Assembly (NCBI GenBank): GCA_965218795.1 | Contig: OZ244653.1 | Span: 640,001-704,000, forward strand | Direction: 5' to 3' | DNA length: 64,000 nucleotides | Origin: a bacterium | Lineage (GTDB): Bacteria; UBA8248; JACPRG01; G963555815 | In this document: in pieces, positions 7,278 to 55,602 of the stretch | Layout of the letters: the number at the start of each line of letters is the position of its first letter | How positions within the stretch are numbered: position 1 is the stretch's first letter | Notes under the pieces: generated by a model | Seen by the model: only the letters and a program-made list of their open reading frames with translations | What the model was told of the DNA's origin: nothing | Database searches by the model: none | Translations under genes and position numbers: made by a program

Positions 7278-7354
7278 TGGCGGGGTTGACGGGACTTGAA
7301 CCCGCGACCTCTGGCTTGACAGGCCAGCGTTCTAACCGTCTGAACTACAACCCC
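7278..7354 (-). tRNA. tRNA-Asp(GTC)
   Basis: Acceptor stem GGGGTTG/CAACCCC, anticodon arm CTGGC-CTGTCAA-GCCAG, T-loop GGTTCAAGTCC, encoded CCA. Confidence 0.95.
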
Positions 7355-7376
7355 GCCGCGTATCTCTTCATTGGTA

Positions 7377-7452
7377 TGGTGGGCGGAACAGGGCTTGAAC
7401 CTGTGACCTCCGGCTTGTAAGGCCGGCGCTCTTCCAACTGAGCTATCCGCCC
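7377..7452 (-). tRNA. tRNA-Val(TAC)
   Basis: Acceptor stem GGGCGGA/TCCGCCC, anticodon arm CCGGC-CTTACAA-GCCGG, T-loop GGTTCAAGCCC, encoded CCA. Confidence 0.95.
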
Positions 7453-15007: not shown

Positions 15008-15084
15008 CGGGGCGTAGCGCAGCCTGGTAGCGCGCTTGCTTCGGGAGCAAGAGGTCAGGAGTTCAAATCTCCTCGCCCCGACCA
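15008..15084 (+). tRNA. tRNA-Pro(CGG)
   Basis: CGGGGCGTAGCGCAGCCTGGTAGCGC..., anticodon arm CTTGC-TTCGGGA-GCAAG, ends CGCCCCGACCA. Confidence 0.95.
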
Positions 15085-15088
15085 TGGT

Positions 15089-15128
15089 GAAGGGGAACCG
15101 GCTTTTGCGTGTCGGTTCCCCTTCTTTT
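15089..15128 (+). terminator. Intrinsic terminator after tRNA-Pro
   Basis: Hairpin GAAGGGGAACCGGC...GTCGGTTCCCCTTC followed by TTTT. Confidence 0.75.
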
Positions 15129-15170
15129 CCAGTTCTTCGGATTGTCTGACTTGGATAGCTTCCTGTCAGG

Positions 15171-15200
15171 TTGACAGTCCTTTTGGCCTTCTCCTAGAAT
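15171..15200 (+). promoter_or_regulatory. Putative sigma70-type promoter of the oxidoreductase/DAHPS/AroE cassette
   Basis: TTGACA-N18-TAGAAT about 60 nt upstream of the start at 15261. Confidence 0.6.
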
Positions 15201-15260
15201 TTCGGGCGTTTTTCAAAGGAAATTTCCGTTTTCTCTATCTCAATCTCAAAGGAAATCCTC

Positions 15261-16283
15261 TTGAAGGTTTTGCAAATCGGGCTGAGCGGATTTGGAAAAA
15301 ATCACGTCGAGGCGTGGGCTCGCATGGGCATGGCGGACTCGCTCTATATCGCCGATTTCAGACCCGAGGCATTCGATCTGCTCGCGCGCTACCAGATCCC
15401 CCCCGAGCAATTTTCAACAGATCTCGAAACGTTTCTGGGCGACGTTGACGTTGTGGATGTCGTCACGCCCTCGGACAGCCATTTCCCATTGTGCCGGACG
15501 GCCATCAAGGCGGGAAAAGACGTCTTCGTTGAGAAGCCGATCACGGTAAAGACGGAGGAGGCCGAAGCCCTCGCCCGGTTGGTGGGGGAGTCCGAAAAGA
15601 TTCTACAGGTAGGATACTATTACCGGTACCATCCGATCTCGCGGTTCATCAAGGAACGAATCGATGCGGGGTCCCTGGGCGAGATTCGCTACATCGCCGG
15701 GAACTTCCTGGGATTCAAGCGGGCGAGGAACGACGTCGGAGTGACCCACACCGATGCCATTCATTTCTTTGATTTGTACAATTGGTTTTTGGGGCCGGCC
15801 GAGACGGTATTGACGTCTGTTGTCCGGGACCATTTCGGACGGGGTCTGGAGGACACCTCGCTGGTGGTGCTCGAGTATCCCGGCGGAGCCATCGGAAGGG
15901 TGGAATCCGGGTACATCCAGCCGGGCCGGTGGATTGAGAAGGTGGTCCCCAAGGCGATGACCACAAAAGATCTCTGGGTCATAGGTTCGGAGGCCGCGAT
16001 CGTGGCGGATTTCGAGGTCGAAACGCTAACGGTGCACAAAGTCCGCCATGAGTTGATCGACGGCACCTGGACGGCGATTCGGGGCGGAGCGGAAACACCG
16101 GTCCTCGGAACGGCCAGTCCGGTCGATCAAATCATTATGGAGCTGGAGGCCTTTATCGAATCCGTCAAGACGCGGAAGCCGCCGGCTGCGGGGGTTGTCA
16201 ACAGCGGTGTGCACTTGGCCAAAATAATGGATGCGGTCTATGAATCCAGCCGGGAACGGCGGGCTATTCCCCTGAATCTCTAG
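15261..16283 (+). CDS. Gfo/Idh/MocA family NAD(P)-dependent oxidoreductase
   Basis: Motifs IGLSGFGKNH, VTPSDSH, GKDVFVEKP and DAIHFFD. Confidence 0.9.
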   Translation: MKVLQIGLSGFGKNHVEAWARMGMADSLYIADFRPEAFDLLARYQIPPEQFSTDLETFLGDVDVVDVVTPSDSHFPLCRTAIKAGKDVFVEKPITVKTEEAEALARLVGESEKILQVGYYYRYHPISRFIKERIDAGSLGEIRYIAGNFLGFKRARNDVGVTHTDAIHFFDLYNWFLGPAETVLTSVVRDHFGRGLEDTSLVVLEYPGGAIGRVESGYIQPGRWIEKVVPKAMTTKDLWVIGSEAAIVADFEVETLTVHKVRHELIDGTWTAIRGGAETPVLGTASPVDQIIMELEAFIESVKTRKPPAAGVVNSGVHLAKIMDAVYESSRERRAIPLNL

Positions 16284-16309
16284 AGTCGATTTGGGAAGGG
16301 GAGCGAGAG

Positions 16310-17173
16310 GTGAAAGACATAACTCAGAAGGATATAGAGAAGAATTTCCCGTTGGTGTCCCGTCGCAACGGCGGCGAGCGGAGTACCGTTCGCGTGGGAG
16401 ACGTGGTGATAGGTGGGAACCGGCTCGTGGTCATGGCGGGTCCCTGCACCATCGAAAATATCGATCAGCTCCGAGACATTGCCCGGCACGTGAAGGGTAG
16501 TGGGGCCGTCCTCCTTCGGGGCGGGGCCTATAAGCCGATGACCTTCCCGTATCGAAATGAAAAAACATTTGAGCTGGGCGAAGATGGATTGGCCCAACTC
16601 CGGCAGGTCCGGGAAGAAGTCGGGTTGCCCGTCGTGACCGAGGTCGTGGACGTTCGGTTGGTGGGGCAGGTGGCCGAGACGGCGGACATGGTTCAGGTCG
16701 GGGCGCGGAACATGCAGAACTTTCCACTGCTCGAAGAACTCGCCCGGTGCGGAAAGCCCGTTCTTCTCAAGCGGCACTTTGGTTGCAGTCTGCGTGATTG
16801 GCTGGGTGCGGCCGAGTACCTCTATCATTTGGGAAACGACCAAGTCGTGCTGTGCGAGCGAGGGATCGTCGCGCCTCATACGCACGAGCCGACGGCACGG
16901 TTCATTGTGGATATCCAGGCGGTACCGGCGGTGCACAAGTACTCCCATCTGCCCATCGTCATCGATCCCAGCCATGCGACGTTCAACCGGGAATTTGTTC
17001 CCTCCATCTCCAAGGCCGCCATCGCCGCGGGGGCTGACGGCTTGATCCTGGAGGTGCATCCGACACCGCAGGAAGCGGCCGTGGACCCACTCCAGGCGCT
17101 CAGCTATGACGTGTTCGACGAGTTGATGAGTACGCTGCGCACCTTGGCCCCGGTGGTAGACAAGTCGCTGTAA
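16310..17173 (+). CDS. DAHP synthase type I-beta-like PEP aldolase (no regulatory domain)
   Basis: Motifs MAGPC, LRGGAYKP, QVGARNMQNF, KPVLLKR, LCERGI, DPSH and LEVHP. The substrate loop is variant (KPMT). Confidence 0.85.
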   Translation: MKDITQKDIEKNFPLVSRRNGGERSTVRVGDVVIGGNRLVVMAGPCTIENIDQLRDIARHVKGSGAVLLRGGAYKPMTFPYRNEKTFELGEDGLAQLRQVREEVGLPVVTEVVDVRLVGQVAETADMVQVGARNMQNFPLLEELARCGKPVLLKRHFGCSLRDWLGAAEYLYHLGNDQVVLCERGIVAPHTHEPTARFIVDIQAVPAVHKYSHLPIVIDPSHATFNREFVPSISKAAIAAGADGLILEVHPTPQEAAVDPLQALSYDVFDELMSTLRTLAPVVDKSL

Positions 17174-17197
17174 CCCCTCCGAAAGGAAAGATCCGCA

Positions 17198-18310
17198 ATG
17201 GTCAGCGATCTGGGCGATATCCAGGACTGTATATCCAATCCGCTTCAAAAAGAGGTGGAGTCCATCTCGTATTTTGTCGGAATTGTGGGCGATCGCCCGT
17301 CTCAATACGCCAAAAGCCCGACGATTTGGAACCCGACCCTGAAAAAGTTCGAGTTCGACGCTTTCTACGTCGCCTTCGATGTGGAAGAGGCCAAGCTCTC
17401 GGATCTCCTGCGGGTCTTGAAAGCCCACCCCCAGCTCCTTGGTTTCAACGTGACCGTCCCCTATAAAGTGAAAATTCTTCCCCTGCTGGACGAACTGGAA
17501 CCCAAGGCGGAGCGGATTGGGGCCGTGAACACAGTGATGAGGGAGCCCGATGGCCGCCTCGTGGGCTACAACACCGATGGGCAGGGCGGAATCGACAGCC
17601 TGACCCAGGTTCAGCCCGGGGAAAGCGGGGTGTTCATCTCTGGATTAAAAGGCGTAAAGACATTGTTGATCGGCGCCGGCGGCGCGGCGGCCGCACTGGC
17701 CCATTACATCAATGAATCGAGTGAGGGCGCTCCGTTGAAGATCGCCAATCGAACGAAGGAGACCGCCGAAGCCCTGGCCGATTCAGTCAACGGCGCGGGA
17801 GGGGCGGCTACCGTGGTCTCCGAGTCGGAGATCGAGAACGTTGCTCCGGACGTGGACCTGATCGTCAACGCGACAGTCAAAGGGCAGAGCGGGATCCGCC
17901 AGCTTTCAGGAGGGGTGGCGACTTGCATGGAGCCTTATTCGTCTTTGGCCGGGGCGAACCCCGCACCCGTTCCCGAGCCTAGATCGGACGGCGAGGATCG
18001 GTTTTACGCGGCATGGTGGAAGAACTCGGTTGGGGACGTGGTCGAGAATCAGAGAACTTCCTCCGAACTTGCCTCAAGGATTCCCACCGAAGTACGCTTC
18101 TATGATGCGATTTATTCCCCGCAGGAGACCGTTTTTCTGCGCCATGGCCGGCTCAGCGGGCACCGGACCCTAAACGGCAAGGGGATGAACGTCTGCCAGG
18201 CGGCCGACGGTTTCTTCAACCGAATCATGGCCCGGTATCTTGAAGAGCAAAACCTGAAGAATCAGGAAATCTATACGGCAATTCGGGACTTTATGTATCA
18301 AGTGTGGTAG
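17198..18310 (+). CDS. Shikimate dehydrogenase-like protein (AroE family, divergent)
   Basis: Motifs NVTVPYK, IGAVNT, GYNTDG, GAGGAA, ANRT and YDAIYSPQET. Confidence 0.85.
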   Translation: MVSDLGDIQDCISNPLQKEVESISYFVGIVGDRPSQYAKSPTIWNPTLKKFEFDAFYVAFDVEEAKLSDLLRVLKAHPQLLGFNVTVPYKVKILPLLDELEPKAERIGAVNTVMREPDGRLVGYNTDGQGGIDSLTQVQPGESGVFISGLKGVKTLLIGAGGAAAALAHYINESSEGAPLKIANRTKETAEALADSVNGAGGAATVVSESEIENVAPDVDLIVNATVKGQSGIRQLSGGVATCMEPYSSLAGANPAPVPEPRSDGEDRFYAAWWKNSVGDVVENQRTSSELASRIPTEVRFYDAIYSPQETVFLRHGRLSGHRTLNGKGMNVCQAADGFFNRIMARYLEEQNLKNQEIYTAIRDFMYQVW

Positions 18311-18630: not shown

Positions 18631-19533
18631 ATGAAGGTGCTGGTCACAGGGTCGACGGGACTCGTCGGTTCGACGCTGATTCCATTTCTGGCGACAGAAG
18701 GTCATACGATGACGCGGCTGGTCCGGTCCCGGCCTTCCAGCCCGAATCAGGAAGCAGGCTGGGATCCGGAGAGAGGAGATCTGGATCCCGCCGGACTGGA
18801 GGGACACGATGCCGTTGTTCATCTGGCCGGAGAGAACATCGCGGCTGGGCGGTGGACCCCGGAACGAAAAGAGAAAATTCGTGCGAGCCGGGTCAACGGA
18901 ACACGTCTTCTCTGCGAGGCCCTTGCCGGACTCGACGATCCCCCGAAAGTTTTGGTCTCGGCATCCGCTATCGGATACTACGGTGAGCGAGGCAATGAGG
19001 CGGTGACCGAGGAGAGTACAGCGGGGTCGGGCTTTCTACCGGAAGTCTGTAAAGCATGGGAAGAGGCTGCGCAACCCGCGGCCAATGCTGGGATTCGGGT
19101 GGTCCACGTCAGAATCGGAATCGTCATGAGTCCGGCAGGCGGTGCGCTTGCAAAGATGTTAACTCCATTCAGGATGGGGTTAGGCGGAAAGATTGGAAGC
19201 GGAAAGCAGTATATGAGCTGGATTTCAATCGATGACCTGATTGGTGTCATACATCACGCGATCACATCGGGAGCTCTGATAGGGCCGGTCAACGCAGTAG
19301 CCCCCACACCGGTCAGAAACTCGGAATTCACCCGGATCCTCGGTCGGGTTCTGGGCCGCCCGGCTTTGATCCCGCTCCCGGCATTTGCGGCCAAGATGAT
19401 GTTGGGTGAAATGGCGGACGAGTTGCTTCTGGCCAGCACCCGTGTGGAACCCGGACGGCTGAAAAGCACGGGGTACACATTTCATCATTCCCGCTTGGAA
19501 GAGGCGTTGCGGCATGTCTTGGGTAAGATTTGA
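18631..19533 (+). CDS. TIGR01777 family NAD-dependent epimerase/oxidoreductase
   Basis: Motifs VTGSTGLVG, HLAGENIA..RWT, SASAIGYYG and GSGKQYMSWI; AGGAG RBS. Confidence 0.92.
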   Translation: MKVLVTGSTGLVGSTLIPFLATEGHTMTRLVRSRPSSPNQEAGWDPERGDLDPAGLEGHDAVVHLAGENIAAGRWTPERKEKIRASRVNGTRLLCEALAGLDDPPKVLVSASAIGYYGERGNEAVTEESTAGSGFLPEVCKAWEEAAQPAANAGIRVVHVRIGIVMSPAGGALAKMLTPFRMGLGGKIGSGKQYMSWISIDDLIGVIHHAITSGALIGPVNAVAPTPVRNSEFTRILGRVLGRPALIPLPAFAAKMMLGEMADELLLASTRVEPGRLKSTGYTFHHSRLEEALRHVLGKI

Positions 19534-29874: not shown

Positions 29875-30242
29875 GGGGATGACATCAATCGGTGTGAATG
29901 GAAGATGAGCCGACATCGTTCGTATTCAAACAACCGCCGGTCGCGGAATCGGCGGCTGTTTTGAGTCGACTTTCCAACCGCGGCAAAACGGGCACATTCC
30001 ATGTCCGAATCAAATTTGTTATGATCGTCTCGCTTTCGGCCTCATAAAAGGGGGGCACTTAGAAGGGGTCAAGGCCGCATCCACGCATTTGACCGATTTG
30101 ACAGCCTTGTCAGGGTCATCCATTCATCCCCCCTGTGGTTAGAAGTATCTGCTTCAGTCCTACGCATTTTTCGGCGCGTTCCGTACCATGTCGTGCGGAA
30201 TCCGGGCGGGTTGAGACCGCACGTGAAGTAAGGAAGGGTTCG

Positions 30243-31112
30243 ATGGAGCTGTTCTCACGTCTGGTGTTGCATAGCCTGGACGGGATTGTCTTCGGGTGGC
30301 TGTACGCACTCATTGCGTTTGGTCTCAGTCTCATCTTCGGCCTGCTGAATATCGTCAACGTCGCCCATGGAACGCTGTACATGCTGGGTGCGGTTTTCGG
30401 CTGGTATTTTGGCGGGGCTCTGTCAGGCGGAAATTACTGGGTGGCGTTGATTTGCGCTCCTCTCATTGTGTGTCTGTTCTCTGTCTTCCTGGAATTGGTG
30501 GTTCTGCGGCCGATCGAAGAAAATACGGACATGACAATCCTCTCGACTTTCGGGATACTCCTGGTGGTTGAAAATATCGTCCTGCTCTGGATCGGAGGGC
30601 AGGGGGTGACCTTCGATGCCCCGTTCGAGGCCCAGGTTCCCATCGCCGGTTACAGGTATTCGGTTTACCGGCTCTTTGTCATGGGATTTGCCGTGACGAC
30701 TTCCCTCATCCTCTGGTGGTTTCTCCAAAAAACGCGTTATGGATTGTGGATCCGGGCCGTCCGGATGAATACGGAGCTTTCCCTGGCGGATGGTATCCCC
30801 GTCAAGTCCGTCAATACGGTCGCCTTCGCCTTGGGGGGATTATTGGCCGGCCTGTCGGGGGTATTGGCAGGGCCCTTTGTCGCTGTTTCCCCGGTGATGG
30901 GTTTAAACGTCTTGATCATCGCCTTCATCGTGGTCATCGTCGGCGGGTTGGGGGATCCGTTCGGAGCTGTGTTGGCCGGAATCATCCTCGGCTTGGTGGA
31001 AAGCCTTGCGTCCATCTTTATGGAACCCACGTTGGCCCGTGTGATCTCCCTGCTGTTCGTGACGACCTTTCTGTTCTTCCGTCCGAACGGGCTTTTTGGG
31101 AGGGGCAGGTAA
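30243..31112 (+). CDS. Branched-chain amino acid ABC permease (LivH-like)
   Basis: Motifs GLSLIFGLLNIVNVAHG, VIVGGLG and RPNGLFG. Confidence 0.9.
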   Translation: MELFSRLVLHSLDGIVFGWLYALIAFGLSLIFGLLNIVNVAHGTLYMLGAVFGWYFGGALSGGNYWVALICAPLIVCLFSVFLELVVLRPIEENTDMTILSTFGILLVVENIVLLWIGGQGVTFDAPFEAQVPIAGYRYSVYRLFVMGFAVTTSLILWWFLQKTRYGLWIRAVRMNTELSLADGIPVKSVNTVAFALGGLLAGLSGVLAGPFVAVSPVMGLNVLIIAFIVVIVGGLGDPFGAVLAGIILGLVESLASIFMEPTLARVISLLFVTTFLFFRPNGLFGRGR

Positions 31113-32116
31113 TGGCACTGTCCGTTCTCCCCAGGGCAGACTCACGGCGAACGGCGTATACCCTGCTCGGCGTTCTGGTCATTCTCCTCGTCTTACCCTT
31201 GATGACGGATGATTTCGGCGTTGCCTTTACGATGGACATCCTCATTTGGGGATTGCTGGCAATGTCGTTCGACTTCATTTACGGCTTCACTGGTCTATTG
31301 AGTCTCGGGCAGTCCGTGTTTTTCGGTCTCGGCGTCTACGGTCTGACGTTGGTGATCATCCACTGGGGAGCCGGCATCTGGTTGGCCATGTTGACGGGGC
31401 TTGTTCTGTCCGGTGCCGGTGCCGCCCTTTTCGGCTACTTCGCTGTCAAAGTCCGCGGGCACGGATTTATCATCGTTACCGTGGTCGGGGCGACCATCAT
31501 CACCTTGATCGCCTTTGCGTGGAAAACGGTCACCGGAGGAGACGACGGTCTGGTGTTCACTCGGCCCCTGTTGACGCTGGGCCCCTGGGCCATCGATTTG
31601 ACCGAACAACTGCCACGTTACTATTACACAATCATCTGCATTGCCGCTTGTTATTATATTGCTCTGCGCATTCTCCGCTCTCCCCTGGGCAGGGTATTCG
31701 AACTGATCCGCGAGAATGAGGATCGCGCGCGCTGCGTGGGGTACGACACCGGCCGGTACAAGCTGATCTCCTTTACCATCGCGGGCTTGATTGCAGGCTT
31801 GTCCGGTGTTTTGTATGCCATGTCCGTCAGCTATGCCAGCGCGGAATTCTTCAACTGGTTAATTTCGGCCGAGGCAGTCGTCTGGACGTTGTTCGGCGGC
31901 GCGGGAACGCTTTATGGCGCTGTGGCCGGAGCCGGGATTCTCATCTATCTGCGCGAAGCCTTGAGCAGCACGTGGTCGGTGACCTATCCCATCATCCTTG
32001 GAATCATCATTATCGTTGTCGTGACGTTCACGCCCGCTGGTCTCGTCGGAACCGTGAAGCGGCTCATCTCCAATCTGCGAAAGGGAGGCGTGGAGGAGAA
32101 TGAACGCCATGGCTGA
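31112..32116 (+). CDS. Branched-chain amino acid ABC permease (LivM-like)
   Basis: Motifs GFTGLLSLGQSVFFGLG, TGGDDG, SPLGR..IRENE and GGAGTLYG. Confidence 0.9.
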   Translation: MALSVLPRADSRRTAYTLLGVLVILLVLPLMTDDFGVAFTMDILIWGLLAMSFDFIYGFTGLLSLGQSVFFGLGVYGLTLVIIHWGAGIWLAMLTGLVLSGAGAALFGYFAVKVRGHGFIIVTVVGATIITLIAFAWKTVTGGDDGLVFTRPLLTLGPWAIDLTEQLPRYYYTIICIAACYYIALRILRSPLGRVFELIRENEDRARCVGYDTGRYKLISFTIAGLIAGLSGVLYAMSVSYASAEFFNWLISAEAVVWTLFGGAGTLYGAVAGAGILIYLREALSSTWSVTYPIILGIIIIVVVTFTPAGLVGTVKRLISNLRKGGVEENERHG

Positions 32117-46462: not shown

Positions 46463-47269
46463 TCAGGAGGTCTCGGGTGACGGGACAGGCCCTGGAGGAG
46501 ACGGTCTGTTGAATTCCGGGAGGCAAGCCGCCGCACCATTGTCCATCAGCCAAAGAAGCCTTCCATTGGGAGGCGAGATGATCTGGGAGGGATAGACCTC
46601 GGGGTGAAATTCACCGTGAAGAACGGATTGGAGGGCAGCGGCCTTCTCCTCGCCTGCAAGCAGGAAGATGATGCAGGCGGCATTGTTGAGAACGGGGGGC
46701 GTCACGGTGATCCGGCAGGCTTCTGATTTTTCGATCCACACTGGGGCGACCATTCGATGCGCTTCGAATACGACATCGGTACCGGGAAAGAGGGAGGCCG
46801 TATGTCCGTCCGCCCCCATGCCCAGGAGGACAAGATCGAATCGTGGAAATCCTCCCCCTTCCACCCGAAAGAAAGATTTCAGATGCGTCTCATATTCGGA
46901 CGCGGCCGTCCCGGCTTCGGCCTCCTCTCCGCGAACCCGATGAATGTTCTCCTCGGGCACAGGGGCCTGGAAGAGCATCGCCTCCGCGGCCATGCGGTAA
47001 TTGCTGTCTTTGTGCTCGGGCGGAACATGGCGTTCGTCTCCCCAGAAAAAGTGAGTCTTTTCCCACGGGATTTGCTCCCGAAACGTCTGAGTGGGGTCCG
47101 ACAGAATCTCGTAGAGCCCCTTTGGCGTCGACCCGCCGGAGAGGGCCACCGTGAATCGCCCGTACCGATGGACGGCCGATTGGGCGAGTTCGACAAATTC
47201 CCCGGCTGCGCGTCGGATCATGGCCGCCGCATCCTCGAAAACCTCGAATACAGGCACTTCAGGATTCAC
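46463..47269 (-). CDS. pgl: 6-phosphogluconolactonase
   Basis: Motifs ALSGGSTP, WGDERHVP..SNY and LGMGADGHTASLFPG. Confidence 0.95.
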   Translation of the reverse strand: MNPEVPVFEVFEDAAAMIRRAAGEFVELAQSAVHRYGRFTVALSGGSTPKGLYEILSDPTQTFREQIPWEKTHFFWGDERHVPPEHKDSNYRMAAEAMLFQAPVPEENIHRVRGEEAEAGTAASEYETHLKSFFRVEGGGFPRFDLVLLGMGADGHTASLFPGTDVVFEAHRMVAPVWIEKSEACRITVTPPVLNNAACIIFLLAGEEKAAALQSVLHGEFHPEVYPSQIISPPNGRLLWLMDNGAAACLPEFNRPSPPGPVPSPETS

Positions 47270-47421
47270 GGAAAAGACTCGTAGGGGGTTAAGAAGTGTT
47301 GGTCCAGGAATCCACTCCCCGACACGGCGCGCAGCTTCGGAACGTCATTATAGGAACCACGGGGAACAACGCAATGCCGTGGGGGCTGCCGGTCGCCCCC
47401 GCAGGCAGCAGGCGGGGCCTA

Positions 47422-47670
47422 TGGATTCCCGCTTCCGCGGGAATGACAGGCCAGGGGGGCAAAGGAAAGGTGGCCGCCGACCTCCATCCGCCGAGTCGAG
47501 CGCGAGCGCTTCGCTCGGAGCGTCATTTCAGGAAACACCGGCGCGCCAACCAGCGGCTTCTGGTTCTCAACACCCCACCTGGATTCCTGCGCAGGCAGGA
47601 ATCCATTCAGGGCGTTATTTTCGGAAACATCGGCGGGCCATCAGAGAGCGGCTTGTGGTTCTGGGTCCTT
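47422..47670. repeat. Cluster of REP-like palindromes (left flank of the autotransporter)
   Basis: TGGATTCCCGCTTCCGCGGGAATGAC at 47422-47447 and TGGATTCCTGCGCAGGCAGGAATCCA at 47580-47605. Confidence 0.8.
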
Positions 47671-49410
47671 GACAACTCATGGGGCGGAGGAACCCGCCCT
47701 TGGTCGGGTGTCCAGGCGGGGAAGCCGTCCGTTCCATCCGTTCGCTGAAGCCCTAGAACCGGATGCCGACATTGAGGAGGCCGGCGTATTCCCGATCCTT
47801 CGTGCCCAGGCCGCCCGCCGTCGCCTCGCCGCTGAGCGAGAACCGGCCCCAGCGCCAGACCCCGCCCAGGCCCAGCAGAGCCCGGGTTGTCCTGGTTCCC
47901 GACCCGAGCCGCTCTCCCGATACCTCAACGGCCGTTACCCCGCCCCTGAGCGTCTGCTCCACGTCCACCGAACCCCGAAGGGAGAACGCCCCGCCGTCCC
48001 AGACGCGACCGGTCTCCGCCACCAAACCGCCCCCGCCCTTGAGACGCTTCGCCTCGGTGAGCCTGACCCGCGCGCCCACCGCGTCCGTGAACTTGTCCAA
48101 GGAAATCCCGGAGCGGCTCGCCCACACCCGAGGCGTCAGGCTCATTCTCTCGCCCAGCGCGATGCGCCGACCCGTCTCCAGGCTCAGGGAGTGACCGACC
48201 GCGCCGACGCCCCTCTCCAGCCGGCCCCGCCTGTCCGAAGAAAGGTCCAACTTGTAGCCGGTCACCGAGAGGCGGCCATCGACATACCAGCCGCTCGCGC
48301 CGCCCCAGGACACGCCCAATCCCGCGCCGAAGCCCTTCGCGTCGATATCCCCGCCCCCGGTCGGCGAGGAAACCTCCGCCGAAGCCTGAACATGCCGCAC
48401 CGAAACCGTGCCGGTGAGATTCCCGCCCAGGAAGATGTCCGCCCCGGTTTCCGCCGCGAGGCGCTCGAAGTCGTACGCCGCGCCCGCGGTCGAGCGGTCG
48501 GAATCATGCGTCCCCCCCCCGCCCGAAAGCCTCACCCACACCGGCGAGTCCGGAGACCGCAGACGCTCCCCGGCCGGACCCTGGCCGTTCAGCCGAAGCA
48601 GGAATCCGGGAAGCCCCTCGTACACGGCCGAGCGCGGCGCGTACCCCTTCGATGAAGTCCTCGACGGAGAAGCTCCTGCCGAGGATGGTGTTCCCGGCCC
48701 TCTGACTGACGACCAATACGCCCGTCGAGCGGTCGACGGTGACGCCCTCGGCCTGGATGGTGACGTCCCTGGCCCCGTTCGGGACCACGCGGCCGGTGGC
48801 GCCGTTCGCGTCGTGCAGCGTCACGCCGTCAACCACGATGGTGGTCACGCCCCCGTCGTTCACGATCCAGTCGTCGCCGAAGACAGCCGCCACCCGGCGG
48901 TCGTCGAGATCCATCGAGACGTGGAGCTTGGGTTTGAGCGGATCTTCACCGGGGACGGGCGTGTCTCCCGTGGCGAGAATCGCGATGCCGGAAGCCGCGC
49001 CGACGCTTCCCTGCGGCCCGATCATCACTCGGCCCCCGCCGGCGAGATAAACCCCCGCCCCCTCGCCGGTTCCGCCGAACACCCGGCCGTTCACCACGAC
49101 GGTCTGCCTGCGGTAGCCGTCCGCGCCCAGACCCGCGGCGCGCTCCACCGCGCCCGTATCCGCGTTGAGGCGGCCGATCCGGACGCCGCTCGCGCCCGCC
49201 CCGTCGGCGCGGACCGTCGTTCCCTCGCCGACGATGATCTCAGTCTCCCCCATGCCGGACACATGCTCGGCATAGATACCGTGGGCATTAGCGCCCATCA
49301 TCGAGATGGCGGCCTCCATCGTTTCGATGCGGATGTCGCCTTCGGAGCCTTGATGAAGGCCATAGACGCCGTGGGAAGTATCACCCTCCGTCTCGATGAT
49401 TCCGCCCTGA

Positions 49411-49584
49411 ACGTCGATATCGATGGCGCCCGTGCCTGTATGCAGGCCATAGACGCCGTAGGAATTCACCCCCCTCGTCGTGATACGGCCGCCCTGAACG
49501 TCGATGTCGATGGCGCCCGTGCCTGTATGCAGGCCATAGACGCCGTAGGAATTCACCCCCCTCGTCGTGATACGGCCGCCCCGA
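49411..49584. repeat. Two near-identical 87-bp tandem repeats in the autotransporter passenger
   Basis: The 29-aa unit IDIDVQGGRITTRGVNSYGVYGLHTGTGA is duplicated. More diverged copies extend to about 50230. Confidence 0.85.
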
Positions 49585-50419
49585 ACGCCGATGTCGATAT
49601 TGCCTTCGGAGCCTATATGATCAGCGGAGATGCCGTGGGAGAAGGTGTCGCCGTAGGTGGGATCGAGGTCCGTGCTTTCCGTCGTGATGGTGAGGTCTCG
49701 AACGTCGATGTCGATGTCGCCGGAGCCTTGATGCTGACCGTAGATGCCGTTGGAATACATCCCCCTCGTCGTGATACGGCCGCCTTGAACGTCGATATCG
49801 ATGGCGCCCGTGCCTGTATGCAGGCCTATGGCGCCGTTAGGAATACAAGCCCTTCGTCGTGATGGTGAGGTTTTCAGCGTTGATGGCAACGTCGCCGGAG
49901 CCGAGTTGACGCGCGCCATAGACGCCGTGAGCATCCGCGCCCTCCGTCGTGATGGTTCCGCCTCGAACGTCGATGTAGACGTTGCCGCCGTCGCCGGTAT
50001 GATTGCCCCAGATACCCACGTATTTCGTCATGATGACGACGTTTTTAGCGTAGATCTTGAGGGAGTTGTCATTAAACTCCTGAATGCCATAGATGCCTAT
50101 ACCGTCGACTTCCGTAATGATGATGGTGGCTTCTCGAACGTCGATGTCGATGGCGCCAGTGCCGTAATGACGGCTAAAGATGCCTCTGCTGTTATCACCC
50201 GTCGTCGCGATGGTGAGGTCTTGAACGTAGATCGTGATGTCAGCGGTGGAACCGGCGGGCTCCGTGCACACGATCCGCTCTCCGGCTGTGGGCGCGCCTC
50301 CTCTGCACACGTCGGCCGTCTGGGCCCGCGCCTCTCCGACACAGAGAGTGAATACGGCGGCCAGTATCAGGACGATGGCGCCCATCCGCCCCCGCGCACT
50401 CACGCCCCGCCTCTTGTCT

Positions 50420-50496
50420 GGAGTCTGAAGTCTGAAGTCTGAAGTCTGAAGTCTGAAGTCTGAAGTCTGAAGTCTGAAGTCTGAAGTCTGAAGTCT
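50420..50496. repeat. Heptanucleotide simple sequence repeat (GAAGTCT)x10 plus one imperfect copy
   Basis: Perfect copies at 50427-50496 and GGAGTCT at 50420-50426. Confidence 0.97.
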
Positions 50497-50608
50497 ACAC
50501 CGTACCACATTCATCAAGCGCTGACAAGATTGTGACGAACGAACGATCATTTGGAATACTCCGTTTGGGAATGGAAAACACAGCTTCTGGAGTAGGATAT
50601 TTACTCTA

Positions 50609-51050
50609 TCCTGGATTCCTGCACAAGCAGGAATCCAGGAAACACAGAACGGGCTGCGAGAATCTTCAGGAAGCGCTGATGAAGGCCCCCCGGGAGACCG
50701 CCCCTGGTTTTCAAGACGGCTCCGAACCTCTCCCAGCGGGCCGGCGTCCACCTGAACCCCGTTTTGATACGCGATCACCTGCCTTGACAGCGGCGATTGC
50801 CATTGCGGACAGCTTCGGATGGACTTCCTGCTCCAGAGCCTTCATTGGCCGTCGGCGTCAGGCGTCAACTCCGGCGCGCCGGCCATCAGCCGGCGGCTTC
50901 TGGTTCTCGATACCTCGCCTGGATTCCCGCTTCCGCGGGAATGACGAACAAGGTTCCCGCGCAACAGCCTGTCATTCCGGCCCTCGATGAAGACATTCGA
51001 GGACAGGCTGCAGCGGGGATCCAGGCAACACGGGACGGGCTGCGAGAGCA
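50609..51050. repeat. REP/REPIN-like palindromes (right flank of the autotransporter)
   Basis: Hairpin TCCTGGATTCCTGC-ACAA-GCAGGAATCCAGGA at 50609-50640; 50920-50945 is identical to 47422-47447; an inverted partner GTCATTCC starts at 50971. Confidence 0.8.
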
Positions 51051-51134
51051 AGGACCTGAGGCGCGTACCTGAAGACGCCTCGCCAAGAAGCCTGGTCATA
51101 CACGTATCCGTCCCGCCGGTGTCTCCCGCGAAGA

Positions 51135-52763
51135 TCATTCGAGTTCATTTCTCCAGGCCCGGCCGTCGCTGTCCATCAGCTCGTCCGCCTCATCAGGGCC
51201 CCAGCTTCCCGCTGGATAATTCGGGAAATCCCTCGGCGGAAGGGCCTTCCAAACATCCAGGATCGGCTCGACGACGCCCCAGCCGGCCTCGACCATGTCC
51301 GCCCGTTGAAACAACGTGGCATCTCCCAGCATACAGTCGTACAGCAGCCGTTCGTAACCCGTGCTCGGGGTCTTGCCGAAGTGATCCTCATACTGAAACT
51401 GCATGTGGACGTTTCCCAACCGAACGACCGGTCCAGGCACCTTGGCTCCGAAACTCAAGGAGATTCCCTCGTCGGGCTGGAGATGAAGCACGAGTTGGTT
51501 GGGGGTCAGACTTTCCACGGGAGTCTTTTCGAAGAGGATGAACGGGGCGCGCTTGAACTGGATGGCAATCTCGGTGTGCCGTGTAGGCAGACTCTTGCCG
51601 GTCCGAACATAAATGGGCACATCGGCCCAACGCCAGTTGTCGATGAAGAGTTTGAGGGCGACAAAGGTTTCGGTTGAGGAATCGGGCGCAACGCGATTTT
51701 CCTGCCTGTAACCGGGCGCCTTCTCCCCTCCAGTCCCGCCTTCCCCGTACTGCCCGCGAACGCTTCGGGTCAGGACTTCTTCAGAGGTCAGCGGAGGGAT
51801 GGCCCGAAGGATCTTCGCCTGCTCGTCCCGGACGGCGTCAGCGTCGAACGAGATGGGCGGTTCCATGGCCGTCAGGCTGATCAGCTGAAAGATGTGGTTT
51901 GGCACCATGTCGCGGAGGGCCCCGGAGCGATCGTAATAGCCCCCGCGTTCTTCGACCCCGATGCTCTCGGCCACCGAGATCTGAACGTGATCGATGTACC
52001 GGCGGTTCCAGATCGGCTCGAAAATACCGTTGGCGAATCGGAAGACGAGGATATTTTGAACGGTTTCCTTTCCCAGGTAATGATCGATCCGATAAATCTG
52101 GCGTTCTTCCAGGACCTGTCGGATCTCGCGGTTCAGGGCGCGCGCCGATCCCAGATCACGCCCGAAGGGCTTCTCGAAGATGACCCGCCGCCAGGCGTCT
52201 CTCTCCTCCCGGACAAGACCCGCTTCACCGAGGTGGCCCGTGATGGGGGAGAAAAAATCGGGAGCCGTGGCCAGATAGAAGAAGTATCGGCCGCCTGTCC
52301 CTTCATTCTCGTCGATTCCCTCGAGCCGGCCCCGGAGACGCGAATAAGTGTCCGCCTCGGCCAGATCCCCCCGGAGGTAATGGACCCGCTGAAGAAGACG
52401 GCCCCACCGATCGGCGTCTATCGGGAGGGTCGTGAATTTCCGTATTTCGGAATCGAGTTTCTCGCGGAAGGATTCCGTGGTCATGTCCCGCCGGGCGACT
52501 GCGACAATCGAGAACTCCCTGGCGAGCAGATCCTGCTGTCCCAGGTTGTTGAGGGCCGGGATGAGCTTGCGCTTCGTCAGGTCGCCGGAAGCCCCGAAAA
52601 TGACCATGACGCAGGGGTCCGCGGGCCGTCCCGCCCGGTCCTTCTCTCGCTGCGCTTCGACGGCTTCTGCCATGTCTACCGGTCCTTGCGCGACGGTTTT
52701 CATTCCTCGAACGGATTGAGGTCGGCCTGTTGTTACCGGATTATCCGCCCGCGGGGCGCTCAA
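51135..52763 (-). CDS. zwf: Glucose-6-phosphate 1-dehydrogenase
   Basis: Motifs [22 protein letters not shown] and RDMVPNH. The start may be 52703 or 52673. Confidence 0.97.
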
Positions 52764-53724
52764 CGTGCCCGCCGAATTTTCGCCTCATGGCGGAAAGCAG
52801 CTTCTCGGCGAAAGTGTGGTCCTGACGTGAGCGAAACCGCGCATACAGCGAGGCCGAAAGGACGTCCGCCGGAACGGCTTCCTCCACGGCCGTCATGACG
52901 GTCCACCGGCCTTCCCCGGAATCCTGCACGAATCCGGTGTATTCGGAAAGATCCGGGTCCTCGCTCAGGGCCATGGCCGTCAGATCGAGCAGCCAGGACC
53001 CGACGACGCTTCCCCGCCGCCAGACCTCTGCGATGTCCGCTACGTTCAACGTATAACGGTGCTTTTCCGGCAGCGTTTCCACGTCCGCGTTTTGGAGGAT
53101 GTCGAAGCCTTCGGCGTAAGCCTGCATGAGTCCGTATTCAATGCCGTTATGGACCATTTTGACGAAGTGCCCCGCTCCGGTGGGGCCGCAGTGCAAGTAG
53201 CCCTCTTCGGCGCTGCTCTTGACTGTTTGCCGCCCAACGGTTTTTTCGATCCCTCCCTTTCCGGGCGACAGGGTCTGAAAGATGGACTCCAGACGGCCGA
53301 CGGCTTCCGCGTCTCCGCCGATCATAAGGCAGTATCCGCGCTCGACCCCCCGGATTCCGCCGCTGGTGCCGACATCCACGTAATGAATGCTTTTCTCCCG
53401 CAGGGTCGCTGCGCGCCGGACGTCATCCTTGAAATAAGAATTGCCGCCGTCGATGATCGCATCGCCCGGGTCCATCCGGTCTGCCAGGTCAGTCACCGTC
53501 TGTTCGGTCGGTCCTCCCGCCGGAACCATGACCCAGGCCGCACGGGGTTTTCGTAATTTCCCGACGAAGTCATCAAGGCTCTCGGATCCGACGGCCCCTT
53601 CCCTGGCCAGCGATTTCACGTTATCGGGATTCACGTCGAAGATGACGCACGCATGGCCTCCCCGCATCAGGCGGCGGACCATGTTGGCCCCCATTCTGCC
53701 CAAACCGACCATTCCAAGCTGCAT
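52741..53724 (-). CDS. gnd: 6-phosphogluconate dehydrogenase (decarboxylating, short form)
   Basis: Motifs [36 protein letters not shown] and FGGH. Confidence 0.95.
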
Positions 53725-53835
53725 CTGGACCGCTCCTTTTCCGGCAGGCGAATGCCTATGGATCCGTGATCATGCCGTTGAAACGCCGCTGCTTGTCGGG
53801 TTCGTCTTCAGGGCGGTCCCAACCGCTCTGTTTCG

Positions 53836-55602
53836 TTACTCCAAGGCCCGATCCATGGCGGACCGAAGCTTCTTCAGATCGCCGGCGACATCCGGGCCCA
53901 GATGGATGCGCAGGGCGCGCCGTCCCCGCTCGGCCAGGACCTGAAAATCGCCGCGGGCCTGCGCCGCCTTCACGATTCCGAATGTATACGACTTGCCGGG
54001 CACCGGCAGGTCTTCGGCATCCTCGCAGGTTATCTGAAGGAAGACACCGGACTTCGGCCCGCCCTTGTATGCCTGACCGGTCGAATGGAGAAATCGGGGG
54101 CCGAACCCAAGGCAGGTGGCTACGCGGCGCCTGTCCCGGACCGCCCGACGGATCTCCTGGAGTTCCGTTTCATGCTCGACGTTCATTTCGATGTAAGCCA
54201 GAAGGGCGAAATAGTCCCCGGGACGCAGGCCGTTCAGATGGGCCAGAAGATAGCTGTCGAAAGTGGGGCTTTTGCCCGTCCGATCGTTCAGGGCCTTTGC
54301 GTTCCGTTCATCCGTGAAGAGTCGAATGTCCCCTTCCTCTAAGATGGGGGTCTCGGCGGGAAGCTCTCCGCTGTCTTCAAAGGCGTCGGTCAACGCGCGG
54401 GCGGCGATCTTGCCGGCTTCCACGTCGGGCTGATCGAACGGGTTGATTTTGAGGATTGAGCCTGCCGTCGCTGTGGCGATCTCCCACCGAAAGAACTCCC
54501 GCCCGAGGTCGTAAGGATCCTCTATGGAGATCCGGACCACGGGGTATCCCGCTTCCTCGATGGCCGACACGGCGGCGTCCTGTCCCGGGTCGGGCGCGGT
54601 CTCCAGCCGGCCGTAGACGAAGACGCGGTCATTCCCGTACACCTCCGGCGGGCCCAGCGGTTCGCGGTCGATGGGGATGAGCCCCCCTCCATCCTTCCCG
54701 GTGGACTCGGCCAATAGTTGTTCCAGCCAGGCGCCGAGGTCCCACAGGCCCGGCGAGAGGATGAGGGTGACCTTGTCCCGGCCCCTCCCGGCCAGGACTC
54801 CGAGAATCGTTCCCAAAACGACGCCCGGATTCTCGTCAGGGGCGAGGCGCGAAGAGGAGGCGACCGCCATCTCATGGGCCCGCTCCAGAAACCGGCCGAC
54901 ATCCAGACCCATCACGGCCGCCGGGACCATCCCGAAGTTCGACAGCGCCGAATACCGGCCGCCGATGCTCGGCGAGCCTGCGAAGACGCGGCGGAATCCT
55001 TCCTGGGCGGCCGCGGCTTCGAGTTTGGACCCCGGATCGGTGATGGCGAGAAAATGACGGCCGGCCCGTTCCGGTCCGACCGTTTCCCTGACACGGTGAA
55101 AGAAGTAATCCTTGAAGATGTTGGGCTCGAGCGTGGTCCCCGATTTGCTCGATACGATGAACAGCGTTTTGGCCAGGTCGACCTTTCCTTCGAACGTCCG
55201 GACCTGCGCCGGGTCCGTGGAATCGAGAACGTGGAGCTCGGGGAAACCCTCCATCTTCCCGAAGGTCATCTTCAGGACTTCGGGACAGAGGCTGGAGCCG
55301 CCCATCCCGAGAAGAAGCGCGTGCGAGAAACCCGAAGACTTGACGTCTTCCGCCAGTTCGCTGAGGGACTGTATGTTTTCGAGTTGTTCTTCCGTGACCC
55401 CGAGCCAGCCGAGCCAGTCAGCCTCATCGGAATTCGTCCACAGGCTCTTGTCGCGGGCCCACAGCCGGTGAACCTTCCCCTGTGCCCGCCACGCTTCAAG
55501 GCTTGCCCGGACTCCGGCCCATTGCTCTGTGGAAAGGGAGTATTCCTGTTGATTGATGCGGGCCTCCGCGGCCTCGCCGCATTTTCGATTCACGGCATTC
55601 AA
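53836..55602 (-). CDS. Glucose-6-phosphate isomerase domain of a Tal-Pgi fusion (transaldolase part lost)
   Basis: Motifs LGMGGSSL, SSKSGTTLE, GGRYSALS, EQLLAESTGK, NPFDQPDVE and GPRFLHSTGQ. There is no convincing start codon or RBS, so it may be a pseudogene. Confidence 0.8.
   Translation of the reverse strand: MNAVNRKCGEAAEARINQQEYSLSTEQWAGVRASLEAWRAQGKVHRLWARDKSLWTNSDEADWLGWLGVTEEQLENIQSLSELAEDVKSSGFSHALLLGMGGSSLCPEVLKMTFGKMEGFPELHVLDSTDPAQVRTFEGKVDLAKTLFIVSSKSGTTLEPNIFKDYFFHRVRETVGPERAGRHFLAITDPGSKLEAAAAQEGFRRVFAGSPSIGGRYSALSNFGMVPAAVMGLDVGRFLERAHEMAVASSSRLAPDENPGVVLGTILGVLAGRGRDKVTLILSPGLWDLGAWLEQLLAESTGKDGGGLIPIDREPLGPPEVYGNDRVFVYGRLETAPDPGQDAAVSAIEEAGYPVVRISIEDPYDLGREFFRWEIATATAGSILKINPFDQPDVEAGKIAARALTDAFEDSGELPAETPILEEGDIRLFTDERNAKALNDRTGKSPTFDSYLLAHLNGLRPGDYFALLAYIEMNVEHETELQEIRRAVRDRRRVATCLGFGPRFLHSTGQAYKGGPKSGVFLQITCEDAEDLPVPGKSYTFGIVKAAQARGDFQVLAERGRRALRIHLGPDVAGDLKKLRSAMDRALE

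Follow-up and report, generated by a model that had tools for sequence, protein, structure and literature searches.

A conserved gene trio with a variant DAHP-synthase homologue may form a biosynthetic module for an unusual sugar acid

A 64,000-nucleotide (nt) stretch of contig OZ244653.1 (positions 640,001 to 704,000, forward strand; assembly GCA_965218795.1), from a bacterium of the GTDB lineage UBA8248, was analysed as a whole and is called the window below. It carries three adjacent genes encoding an oxidoreductase of the Gfo/Idh/MocA (Gfo) family (P0001), a homologue of type I-beta DAHP synthase (DAHPS; DAHP is the 7-phosphate of 3-deoxy-D-arabino-heptulosonate; P0002) and a long protein of the shikimate dehydrogenase (SDH) family (P0003). 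We judge the chances to be about even that these genes form a conserved module that makes an unusual sugar acid, as opposed to carrying out the opening step and step four of the shikimate pathway. The best reading of its product is a non-phosphorylated sugar acid of the 3-deoxy-ulosonic type, not aromatic amino acids. A sugar-acid module is likelier than a set of shikimate enzymes because the aldolase has lost a phosphate-binding arginine and because the trio occurs in cell-surface glycan gene clusters of several other phyla.

A three-gene cassette under purifying selection

The cassette comprises the following features.

15261..16283, + strand: gene for the Gfo/Idh/MocA-family NAD(P) oxidoreductase P0001, 340 aa, TTG start
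16310..17173, + strand: gene for the variant type I-beta DAHP-synthase homologue P0002, 287 aa, GTG start, catalytic barrel only
16532..16552, + strand: codons of KPMTFPY (P0002 residues 75-81), the altered aldose-phosphate site, from alignment to 1VS1 and 4GRS
17198..18310, + strand: gene for the long SDH-family protein P0003, 370 aa, ATG start

The three genes are co-directional, are separated by gaps of 26 nt and 24 nt, and each have a purine-rich stretch 5′ of the start codon. A first-pass annotation, made from the window's letters alone, had proposed a tightly spaced cassette of these three families with substrate-site deviations in the aldolase and the dehydrogenase; Pfam assigns the same families, and both deviations, KPMTFPY and DPSHATFNR in the aldolase and YAKSP in the dehydrogenase, are real. 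All three genes are under purifying selection, with dN/dS values of 0.06-0.13 against two relatives (L003 and L004) over a saturated dS of 1.2-2.3.

An aldolase that lacks the aldose-phosphate arginine

P0002 matches the Pfam family DAHP_synth_1 (E 4.8e-59, 199.9 bits) and is 44-53% identical to canonical family representatives. Its best solved relatives are the enzymes of Aeropyrum pernix, Thermotoga maritima and Pyrococcus furiosus (E ~1e-75 to 1e-64), headed by A. pernix DAHPS, 1VS1 (E 1.8e-75). Aligned with 1VS1, the metal-ligand motifs are present, at C46 (AGPC), H222 (DPSH), E248 (EVHP) and D259; R70, K75, R133 and K154/R155 align with positions that bind phosphoenolpyruvate (PEP); and the RGG, KP, GARN and KR motifs are unchanged. 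The differences are in the stretch that reads LRGGAFKPRTSPY in 1VS1 and LRGGAYKPMTFPY in P0002. Here the canonical KPRTSPY has become KPMTFPY, with Arg replaced by Met77, Ser replaced by Phe and Thr retained, and an insertion of three residues relative to 1VS1 comes right after the motif. Further along, DPSHATFNR stands where 1VS1 has DPSHPAGRR.

The roles of the metal, PEP and erythrose 4-phosphate (E4P) positions were assigned from a study of a type I-beta enzyme (PMC6362186), which describes the Arg and Thr of KPRT as E4P contacts in the T. maritima complex and the Arg and Lys that open the motif as PEP-binding residues. It follows that the residue lost in P0002 would be the one that holds the aldose phosphate; with KPMT, P0002 does not have the E4P-binding Arg-Thr pair of a functional DAHPS.

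The replacement is shared by the relatives. All 15 aldolase homologues that lie beside SDH-like genes carry KP[ML]TFPY, as do all 120 best hits in a set of 5.8 billion proteins (103 with Leu, 17 with Met), 117 of which also have DPSH[AS]TF. When representatives at 50% identity are taken, the best 150 include 113 with KPR and only 3 with KPLTFP. In a FastTree phylogeny of 127 rows, all 18 KP[ML]TF rows, together with 2 others, fall on one side of a branch with a support of 99. Judged by these sequences, the active-site change is fixed across a family and is no private mutation of the window, and the aldolase is a distinct, fixed variant that very probably does not use E4P.

A long SDH-family enzyme and its oxidoreductase partner

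P0003 matches both Pfam domains of the SDH family (Shikimate_dh_N, E 5e-22; Shikimate_DH, E 2e-7) and falls under the cut-off of the aroE equivalog model (TIGR00507, 170 against 200.2) as well as under those of 17 other NCBIfam shikimate/quinate dehydrogenase models. It represents a well-conserved family of ~370 aa, and all 25 members that were aligned share T86, K90, N111, D127, Y306 and Q334; we take these residues to correspond to the catalytic Lys/Asp pair and most of the shikimate contacts of AroE. At residues 37-41, P0003 has YAKSP where the AroE of Methanocaldococcus jannaschii (1NVT) has HSFSP, the first Ser being replaced by Ala, and across the family AKSP occurs in 95 and SKSP in 20 of 120 hits. 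In AroE, Ser-x-Ser is the motif that binds the substrate carboxylate, within a compact protein of ~270 aa. P0003 shows neither the motif nor the compact architecture and carries an insertion of ~65-70 residues (about 232-298), with a long helix, in its nucleotide-binding domain.

The AlphaFold model of P0003 (mean predicted local distance difference test score 92.4) retrieved only SDH-family structures in a fold search, at 22-27% identity and, for single-domain SDH entries, with TM-scores of 0.73-0.84 (normalised by target length), and no closer functional class. The 5-ketofructose reductase 7COK was among both the sequence hits and the fold hits. A protein atlas searched with P0003 yielded only generic SDH-family clusters. 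In a plasmid collection, 378 records were matched by tblastn; the best 10 places listed are 27-33% identical over 84-88% of P0003 and include no member of its family, nine being annotated as shikimate dehydrogenase and one lying in a record without annotation. As a separate observation, two Nitrospirota proteins (P0393 and P0394, 689 aa) join a receiver domain and PAS domains to an SDH-like domain 42-44% identical to P0003, which appears to be the output of a signalling protein.

P0001 contains the N- and C-terminal GFO_IDH_MocA domains (Pfam, E 4e-19) and the motifs GxGxxG (residues 7-12), EKP (91-93) and D-x3-H (165-168). It stands far from every characterised enzyme: no named NCBIfam equivalog comes near (best score 90 bits against a cut-off of 450), and its best solved relative scores only 63 bits. 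Orthologues of 41-85% identity lie beside the variant aldolase in nine loci.

The trio recurs in other genomes

To collect relatives, one genome per species was scanned with an alignment of the SDH-like family, which gave 67 loci, all from metagenome-assembled genomes (MAGs) or uncultured isolates; these loci were analysed by tBLASTn with the window genes, clustering of open reading frames (ORFs) and Pfam and NCBIfam scans. The trio is conserved well beyond the window. The variant aldolase lies within 1 kb of the SDH-like gene in 14 of the 67 loci, and a Gfo-family gene or a Gfo::SDH fusion is present in 12 of these 14. Eight loci (L001-L004, L014, L053, L057 and L064) have the full Gfo-aldolase-SDH order with the genes adjacent. 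In six more the aldolase adjoins the SDH-like gene; two of the six have a Gfo::SDH fusion, and another two (L059 and L061) have a Gfo-family gene near the aldolase/SDH-like pair. A fifteenth locus, L066, begins inside the SDH-like gene, and its upstream side is absent from the data. Beyond the sampled genomes, 11 further database-hit pairs of SDH-like protein and aldolase have identical longest-contig sizes, one of them on a 338-kb Nitrospirota contig, which suggests that the pairing extends further still. A member of the family is also listed for Nitrospira sp. Kam-Ns4a.

The fusion ORFs (L013:6909-9101 and L062:2226-4433; 730 and 735 aa) join a complete Gfo/Idh/MocA enzyme to the long SDH-like one and have the variant aldolase within ~0.8 kb. 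Their Gfo part is only 25-26% identical to P0001 and, at that identity, evidently derives from a different Gfo subfamily. These natural fusions are the one sign of a physical association between the Gfo and SDH-like proteins. In one locus the variant aldolase is divided between two ORFs of 103 and 186 aa (L058:6838-7712); the locus holds three copies of an rve-type insertion-sequence transposase, and the split reflects either decay of the gene or a misassembly.

In a quick IQ-TREE phylogeny of 63 SDH-like proteins, a single branch (SH-aLRT 99) separates the 14 aldolase-linked copies from the remaining 49. Members of the sister branch, mostly from Binatia and 'delta' MAGs, lie directly 3′ of prkA, yeaH (DUF444) and spoVR on the same strand, in L008 (3196-9101) and some 30-34 further loci (for example L016-L021 and L029-L033). 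The tie between an SDH-family gene and this stress and starvation triad has no obvious explanation.

Glycan genes surround the module outside the window's clade

Eleven loci lie outside the clade formed by the window and L001-L004 (L013, L014, L048, L053, L057, L058, L059, L061, L062, L064 and L066), and in all 11 the module is surrounded by glycan genes. They come from Acidobacteriota, Gemmatimonadota, Thermodesulfobacteriota, Planctomycetota, Lentisphaerota, Methylomirabilia and a MAG labelled Nanoarchaeia. Cytidylyltransferases of the CTP_transf_3 family are encoded in nine of the 11, with two copies each in L053, L057, L059, L061 and L066, and synthases with NeuB and SAF domains in six. 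The other neighbours include GT2 and GT4 glycosyltransferases, a sugar-phosphate transferase, Wzm/Wzt, Wzi and Poly_export proteins, UDP-galactopyranose mutase, UDP-glucose dehydrogenase, AsnB-like amidotransferases and methyltransferases; in L048, a NeuC scores above its cut-off. The linked NeuB-like and cytidylyltransferase proteins match the NeuB/PseI and PseF/KdsB models, all under the cut-offs, and are not standard enzymes for sialic acid, pseudaminic acid or 3-deoxy-D-manno-octulosonic acid (Kdo). No member of the cytidylyltransferase or NeuB-like ORF clusters was found in the 49 loci of the other SDH-like branch.

These contexts bear on three earlier suggestions. The first-pass annotation had pointed to the neighbourhoods of KPMT-type homologues, polysaccharide loci among them, and outside the window's clade it is in such loci that the module was found without exception. 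It had also proposed an ulosonic acid or a cyclitol as the product: the glycan loci speak for the ulosonic acid, and the cyclitol is dropped because neither the window nor any scanned locus showed a sugar-phosphate cyclase, of the dehydroquinate-synthase type or otherwise. Finally, the cassette had been called self-contained, a description that does not fit, as elsewhere the module is accompanied by genes for activation and transfer that are lacking in this window.

A proposed route to a free ulosonic acid

We infer the chemistry from these observations as follows. P0002 would still bind PEP and a metal, in an active site from which the Arg for the E4P phosphate is gone and in which the pocket would be hydrophobic (Met/Leu, Phe, Phe). 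Because the aldose-phosphate Arg is lost, we propose that the partner it joins to PEP is an aldose without a phosphate, probably a short or deoxy one, and that a free 3-deoxy-2-ulosonic acid results. With a free acid, a phosphatase would be unneeded, and none was seen in the module; direct activation with cytidine monophosphate (CMP) would also be possible, as in nonulosonic-acid pathways.

The SDH-family enzyme would then act on a ring hydroxyl or keto group of the ulosonic acid. The pyranose form of such an acid would be quinate-like, with a tertiary carbon bearing OH and COOH, an adjoining CH2 and then CHOH groups, and this likeness would account for the recruitment of an SDH-family enzyme whose shikimate/quinate pocket is almost intact. 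The 5-ketofructose reductase 7COK is a precedent for an enzyme of this family acting on a sugar. The Gfo/Idh/MocA enzyme would give a complementary redox step, either inverting a stereocentre jointly with the SDH-family enzyme by way of a keto intermediate or preparing the aldose. Two coupled redox steps are suggested by the recurrent pairing of SDH-like and Gfo genes and their occasional fusion; the oxidoreductase had earlier been proposed to make or modify the aldehyde that is condensed with PEP, and a paired redox step is indicated by the fusions no less strongly.

In other phyla the product would be CMP-activated by the PseF/KdsB-like cytidylyltransferase and then incorporated into a glycan of the cell surface. 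The trio of the window's lineage is detached from these downstream genes, and the later steps would be encoded elsewhere in the 5.17-Mb genome or the acid used free.

Taken in full, this would be a new route to a CMP-activatable 3-deoxy-ulosonic acid in at least seven phyla of mostly uncultured bacteria, combining a retooled aldolase of the DAHPS clade with a recruited SDH paired or fused with a Gfo enzyme, of which the window's copy left a glycan locus and may supply a free metabolite; we put this fuller account forward as a tentative possibility. The literature searched contained no paper that describes the cassette, DAHPS homologues of the KP[ML]T type or the presence of SDH-like genes within glycan clusters, and subscription journals or unsearched PMC articles could hold one.

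How the module compares with known pathways and enzymes

In its proposed working the module comes closest to the pathways for Kdo and nonulosonic acids and is a member of neither, since P0002 is under the KdsA cut-offs and is not of the NeuB family. As in the Kdo pathway (KdsD, KdsA, KdsC and KdsB), a PEP aldolase of the same superfamily would make a 3-deoxy-2-ulosonic acid, which would be CMP-activated by a CTP_transf_3 enzyme and then moved to a glycan. However, P0002 is far under the cut-offs of the KdsA models (NF003543, 104.8 against 242; TIGR01362, 103.9 against 314). KdsA takes a phosphorylated aldose and its pathway requires the phosphatase KdsC, whereas the module lacks the phosphate-binding Arg; the module also holds two extra redox enzymes, and the cytidylyltransferases linked to it are all under the KdsB and PseF cut-offs.

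The nonulosonic-acid pathways (NeuC/NeuB/NeuA for sialic acid, and those for pseudaminic and legionaminic acids) offer the parallel of PEP, a non-phosphorylated sugar and direct CMP activation, and in several phyla the module is co-located with NeuB-like, NeuC-like, PseF-like and AsnB-like genes. Unlike NeuB, P0002 belongs to the DAHPS clade: it matches the NeuB Pfam family at 24.5 bits over residues 85-181 only and has no SAF domain. We know of no SDH-family enzyme in the known nonulosonic-acid pathways, and a literature search found no paper joining 'nonulosonic' and 'shikimate dehydrogenase'.

With type I-beta DAHPS (1VS1; T. maritima 1RZM; P. furiosus 1ZCO), P0002 shares the DAHP_synth_1 barrel in its unregulated, core-only form. 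It differs in having F-x-R after DPSH where the canonical enzymes have G-R/K-R, in forming a clade separate from the KPR-type enzymes, and in its partners, which are a Gfo oxidoreductase, an SDH-like protein and glycan genes instead of aro genes. P0003, for its part, resembles the 5-ketofructose reductase of Gluconobacter (7COK/7COL), an enzyme with the SDH fold and a sugar substrate that is a sequence hit at E 5e-21. That reductase is only ~24-25% identical to P0003, is ~280 aa long without the 65-70-residue insertion, and has no known link to a PEP aldolase.

Housekeeping surroundings in the window's clade

Several observations weigh against the sugar-acid reading, and we set them out here together with the alternatives that they favour. 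The first group concerns the window's own neighbourhood, for which the following features are needed.

15008..15084, + strand: tRNA-Pro (anticodon CGG; ARAGORN), directly 5′ of the cassette
~15093-15130: GC-rich hairpin followed by a T-run, 3′ of tRNA-Pro, as read from the sequence
18631..19533, + strand: yfcH-like (TIGR01777) gene of the short-chain dehydrogenase/reductase 'epimerase family', 320 nt 3′ of the P0003 gene, NCBIfam score 340.6 against a cut-off of 207
L001:2390-2466 (Pro), L002:5471-5644 and L003:5464-5637 (both Val and Asp): tRNAs 5′ of the trio in relatives

As the first-pass annotation had described, the cassette follows tRNA-Pro and its hairpin and T-run and lies between surE-pcm and nlpD-apt. 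By Pfam and NCBIfam, surE and pcm are upstream, and the yfcH-like gene, a LOG-like gene, an nlpD-like gene with M23 and LysM domains and apt are downstream. The neighbours are housekeeping genes alone (surE, pcm, tRNAs, LOG, nlpD and apt) in all five members of the clade, and in none of the five is a cytidylyltransferase, NeuB-like or glycosyltransferase gene beside the module. Nor was a cytidylyltransferase, NeuB-like synthase or glycosyltransferase found among the 54 ORFs scanned in the 64-kb window, out of 65 non-overlapping ORFs of at least 90 aa; the other 11 are short (<175 aa) or antisense.

One explanation is that in this lineage the same chemistry yields a small molecule that stays free, for instance a sugar acid or a protective or stationary-phase metabolite, and no glycan precursor. 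In Escherichia coli, surE-pcm-nlpD is a stationary-phase survival neighbourhood, and prkA, yeaH and spoVR, which the sister SDH-like branch follows, are stress and starvation genes. The two Nitrospirota fusions of receiver and PAS domains to SDH-like domains would suggest a regulated activity as well. Yet a housekeeping neighbourhood is weak evidence, and the upstream side of the trio varies among the five relatives: the window and L001 have tRNA-Pro there, L002 and L003 have tRNA-Val with tRNA-Asp, and L004 has an ABC transporter, so the placement may merely reflect rearrangement. The downstream genes could sit elsewhere in the 5.17-Mb genome, and in both trees the window's proteins belong to the same clades as the copies in glycan loci. 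We regard a free end product in this lineage as unlikely.

The downstream side is more constant: LOG-nlpD-apt follows in the window, L001, L003 and L004, and the contig of L002 ends after the yfcH-like gene. A tRNA-Val and tRNA-Asp pair is also present in the window, at 7278-7452 on the opposite strand, 8 kb upstream of the trio, which points to local rearrangement of the DNA near the trio. A recent horizontal gain of the trio at the tRNA was considered and rejected: the GC content of the trio (0.58-0.60) and its GC content at third codon positions (0.71-0.74) match those of the neighbouring genes, and this, with the synteny in four relatives, leaves no sign of an island. The yfcH-like and LOG-like genes were likewise considered as members of the module and rejected, as they lie beside the trio only in the window's clade. 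Among the other loci the yfcH-like gene adjoins the trio only in L001-L003 and is absent from L004; it is possibly a clade-specific companion outside the conserved module.

Aromatic biosynthesis and other alternatives

A second alternative is ordinary aromatic amino-acid biosynthesis, with P0002 as the DAHP synthase, P0003 as an unusually long shikimate dehydrogenase and the Gfo enzyme as an unrelated neighbour. P0002 scores above two NCBIfam DAHP-synthase cut-offs (NF006421, 344.6 against 335; TIGR01361, 295.9 against 267.75); public records name its relatives 3-deoxy-7-phosphoheptulonate synthase, and relatives of P0003 are found under shikimate dehydrogenase. The solved structures nearest to the two proteins belong to genuine DAHPS of type I-beta and to AroE, and the catalytic residues of both proteins are retained. 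With the catalytic Lys/Asp pair and almost all of the shikimate contacts in place, true (dehydro)shikimate or quinate could be the substrate of P0003.

The distribution of the SDH-like family also tells for this alternative. Each of the 67 genomes showed only one long-SDH member, which would fit a housekeeping role, at least in the prkA-linked branch. Of the 63 tree rows, 49 are without the aldolase (36 beside prkA-yeaH-spoVR and 13 in neither context), so the family as a whole is not tied to glycans, and most of its members (these 49) could be the housekeeping AroE of their own phyla. The association within the module has gaps of its own: no Gfo gene was seen in L048 or L058, two of the 14 linked loci, and identity to the window's Gfo is only 23-26% for the fusion domains and for the Gfo protein of L059. 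Both trees, FastTree for the aldolases and quick IQ-TREE for the SDH-like proteins, were built by quick methods.

Set against this, the E4P-contact Arg is Met or Leu in every one of the 120 relatives, P0003 falls short of the aroE cut-off, and the NCBI names of its relatives are in one case 'hypothetical protein' and in several 'shikimate dehydrogenase family protein'. No aroB, aroD/Q, aroK, aroA or aroC domain was found among the window ORFs scanned, in agreement with the earlier annotation. Ordinary aromatic biosynthesis, moreover, gives no reason for the glycan clusters at all 11 distant loci or for the Gfo fusion in two. The canonical shikimate-pathway reading is lowered by this evidence, and we consider it quite improbable.

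The weakest alternative, an aminoshikimate pathway to 3-amino-5-hydroxybenzoate (AHBA) in which the trio would be the counterparts of the oxidoreductase RifL, the aminoDAHP synthase RifH and the aminoshikimate dehydrogenase RifI, draws on the same three superfamilies in the rif cluster, as described in PMC8788734, and is rejected as highly improbable: every partner gene is absent from the window and the scanned loci (RifK-type aminotransferase/AHBA synthase, RifG, RifJ, RifM and RifN, and with them aminotransferase, cyclase, dehydratase, kinase and phosphatase), the nearest solved relatives of the aldolase are type I-beta, not type II, and the context is one of glycan genes, with no polyketide or other natural-product genes nearby. 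The analogy to this pathway drawn in the first-pass annotation fails on the same grounds, there being no aminotransferase and no equivalent of RifG or RifJ.

Other features of the window

The first-pass annotation had also given the cassette its own promoter, which amounts to a consensus match.

15171..15200, + strand: sigma-70-like match TTGACA-18-TAGAAT, 11/12, 61 nt 5′ of the first gene

Such promoter-like sites number 4 in the scanned region, compared with 1.8 +/- 1.3 in shuffles, and the match at 15171-15200 is suggestive only. At the other end of the cassette, no clear terminator was seen in the 320-nt non-coding stretch 3′ of the P0003 gene. The longest ORF of the yfcH-like gene runs from 18367, yet the family match begins only at residue 89-91, and the real start is probably the ATG at 18631 (MKVLVTGSTG). 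An antisense ORF of 382 aa (16280-17428, - strand) overlaps the aldolase gene over its full length and also the beginning of the SDH-like gene; in DNA this rich in GC the frame is probably open by chance.

Farther from the trio, at 49353-49863 and 50416-50496, two arrays of an 87-nt tandem repeat (2.8 and 1.9 copies) and the heptamer GTCTGAA, repeated 11.6 times, lie within a GC-rich stretch at 44-50 kb, where GC reaches 0.67, and close to an autotransporter beta-domain gene (47753-48625). A strong negative AT skew (-0.21 to -0.38) at 30100-31900 falls over ABC permease genes and probably reflects the T-rich second codon positions of membrane proteins. A set of pentose-phosphate genes at 46463-55602 (- strand), encoding 6-phosphogluconolactonase-type, glucose-6-phosphate dehydrogenase, 6-phosphogluconate-dehydrogenase-like and PGI-family proteins, is apparently unrelated to the trio.

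Implications

If the trio makes a sugar acid, the names '3-deoxy-7-phosphoheptulonate synthase' and 'shikimate dehydrogenase' would be wrong for hundreds of database entries, and metabolic reconstructions would mistakenly assign shikimate-pathway steps to Nitrospinota-, Nitrospirota-, Acidobacteriota- and Binatia-type genomes. The prediction can be tested directly with three soluble enzymes. It would mean that an aldolase of primary metabolism switched substrate class by the loss of one phosphate-binding arginine and that the SDH family has a new class of substrate. For the surface glycans of environmental bacteria, it would add a new acidic sugar, with its marker genes, beside Kdo and the nonulosonic acids.

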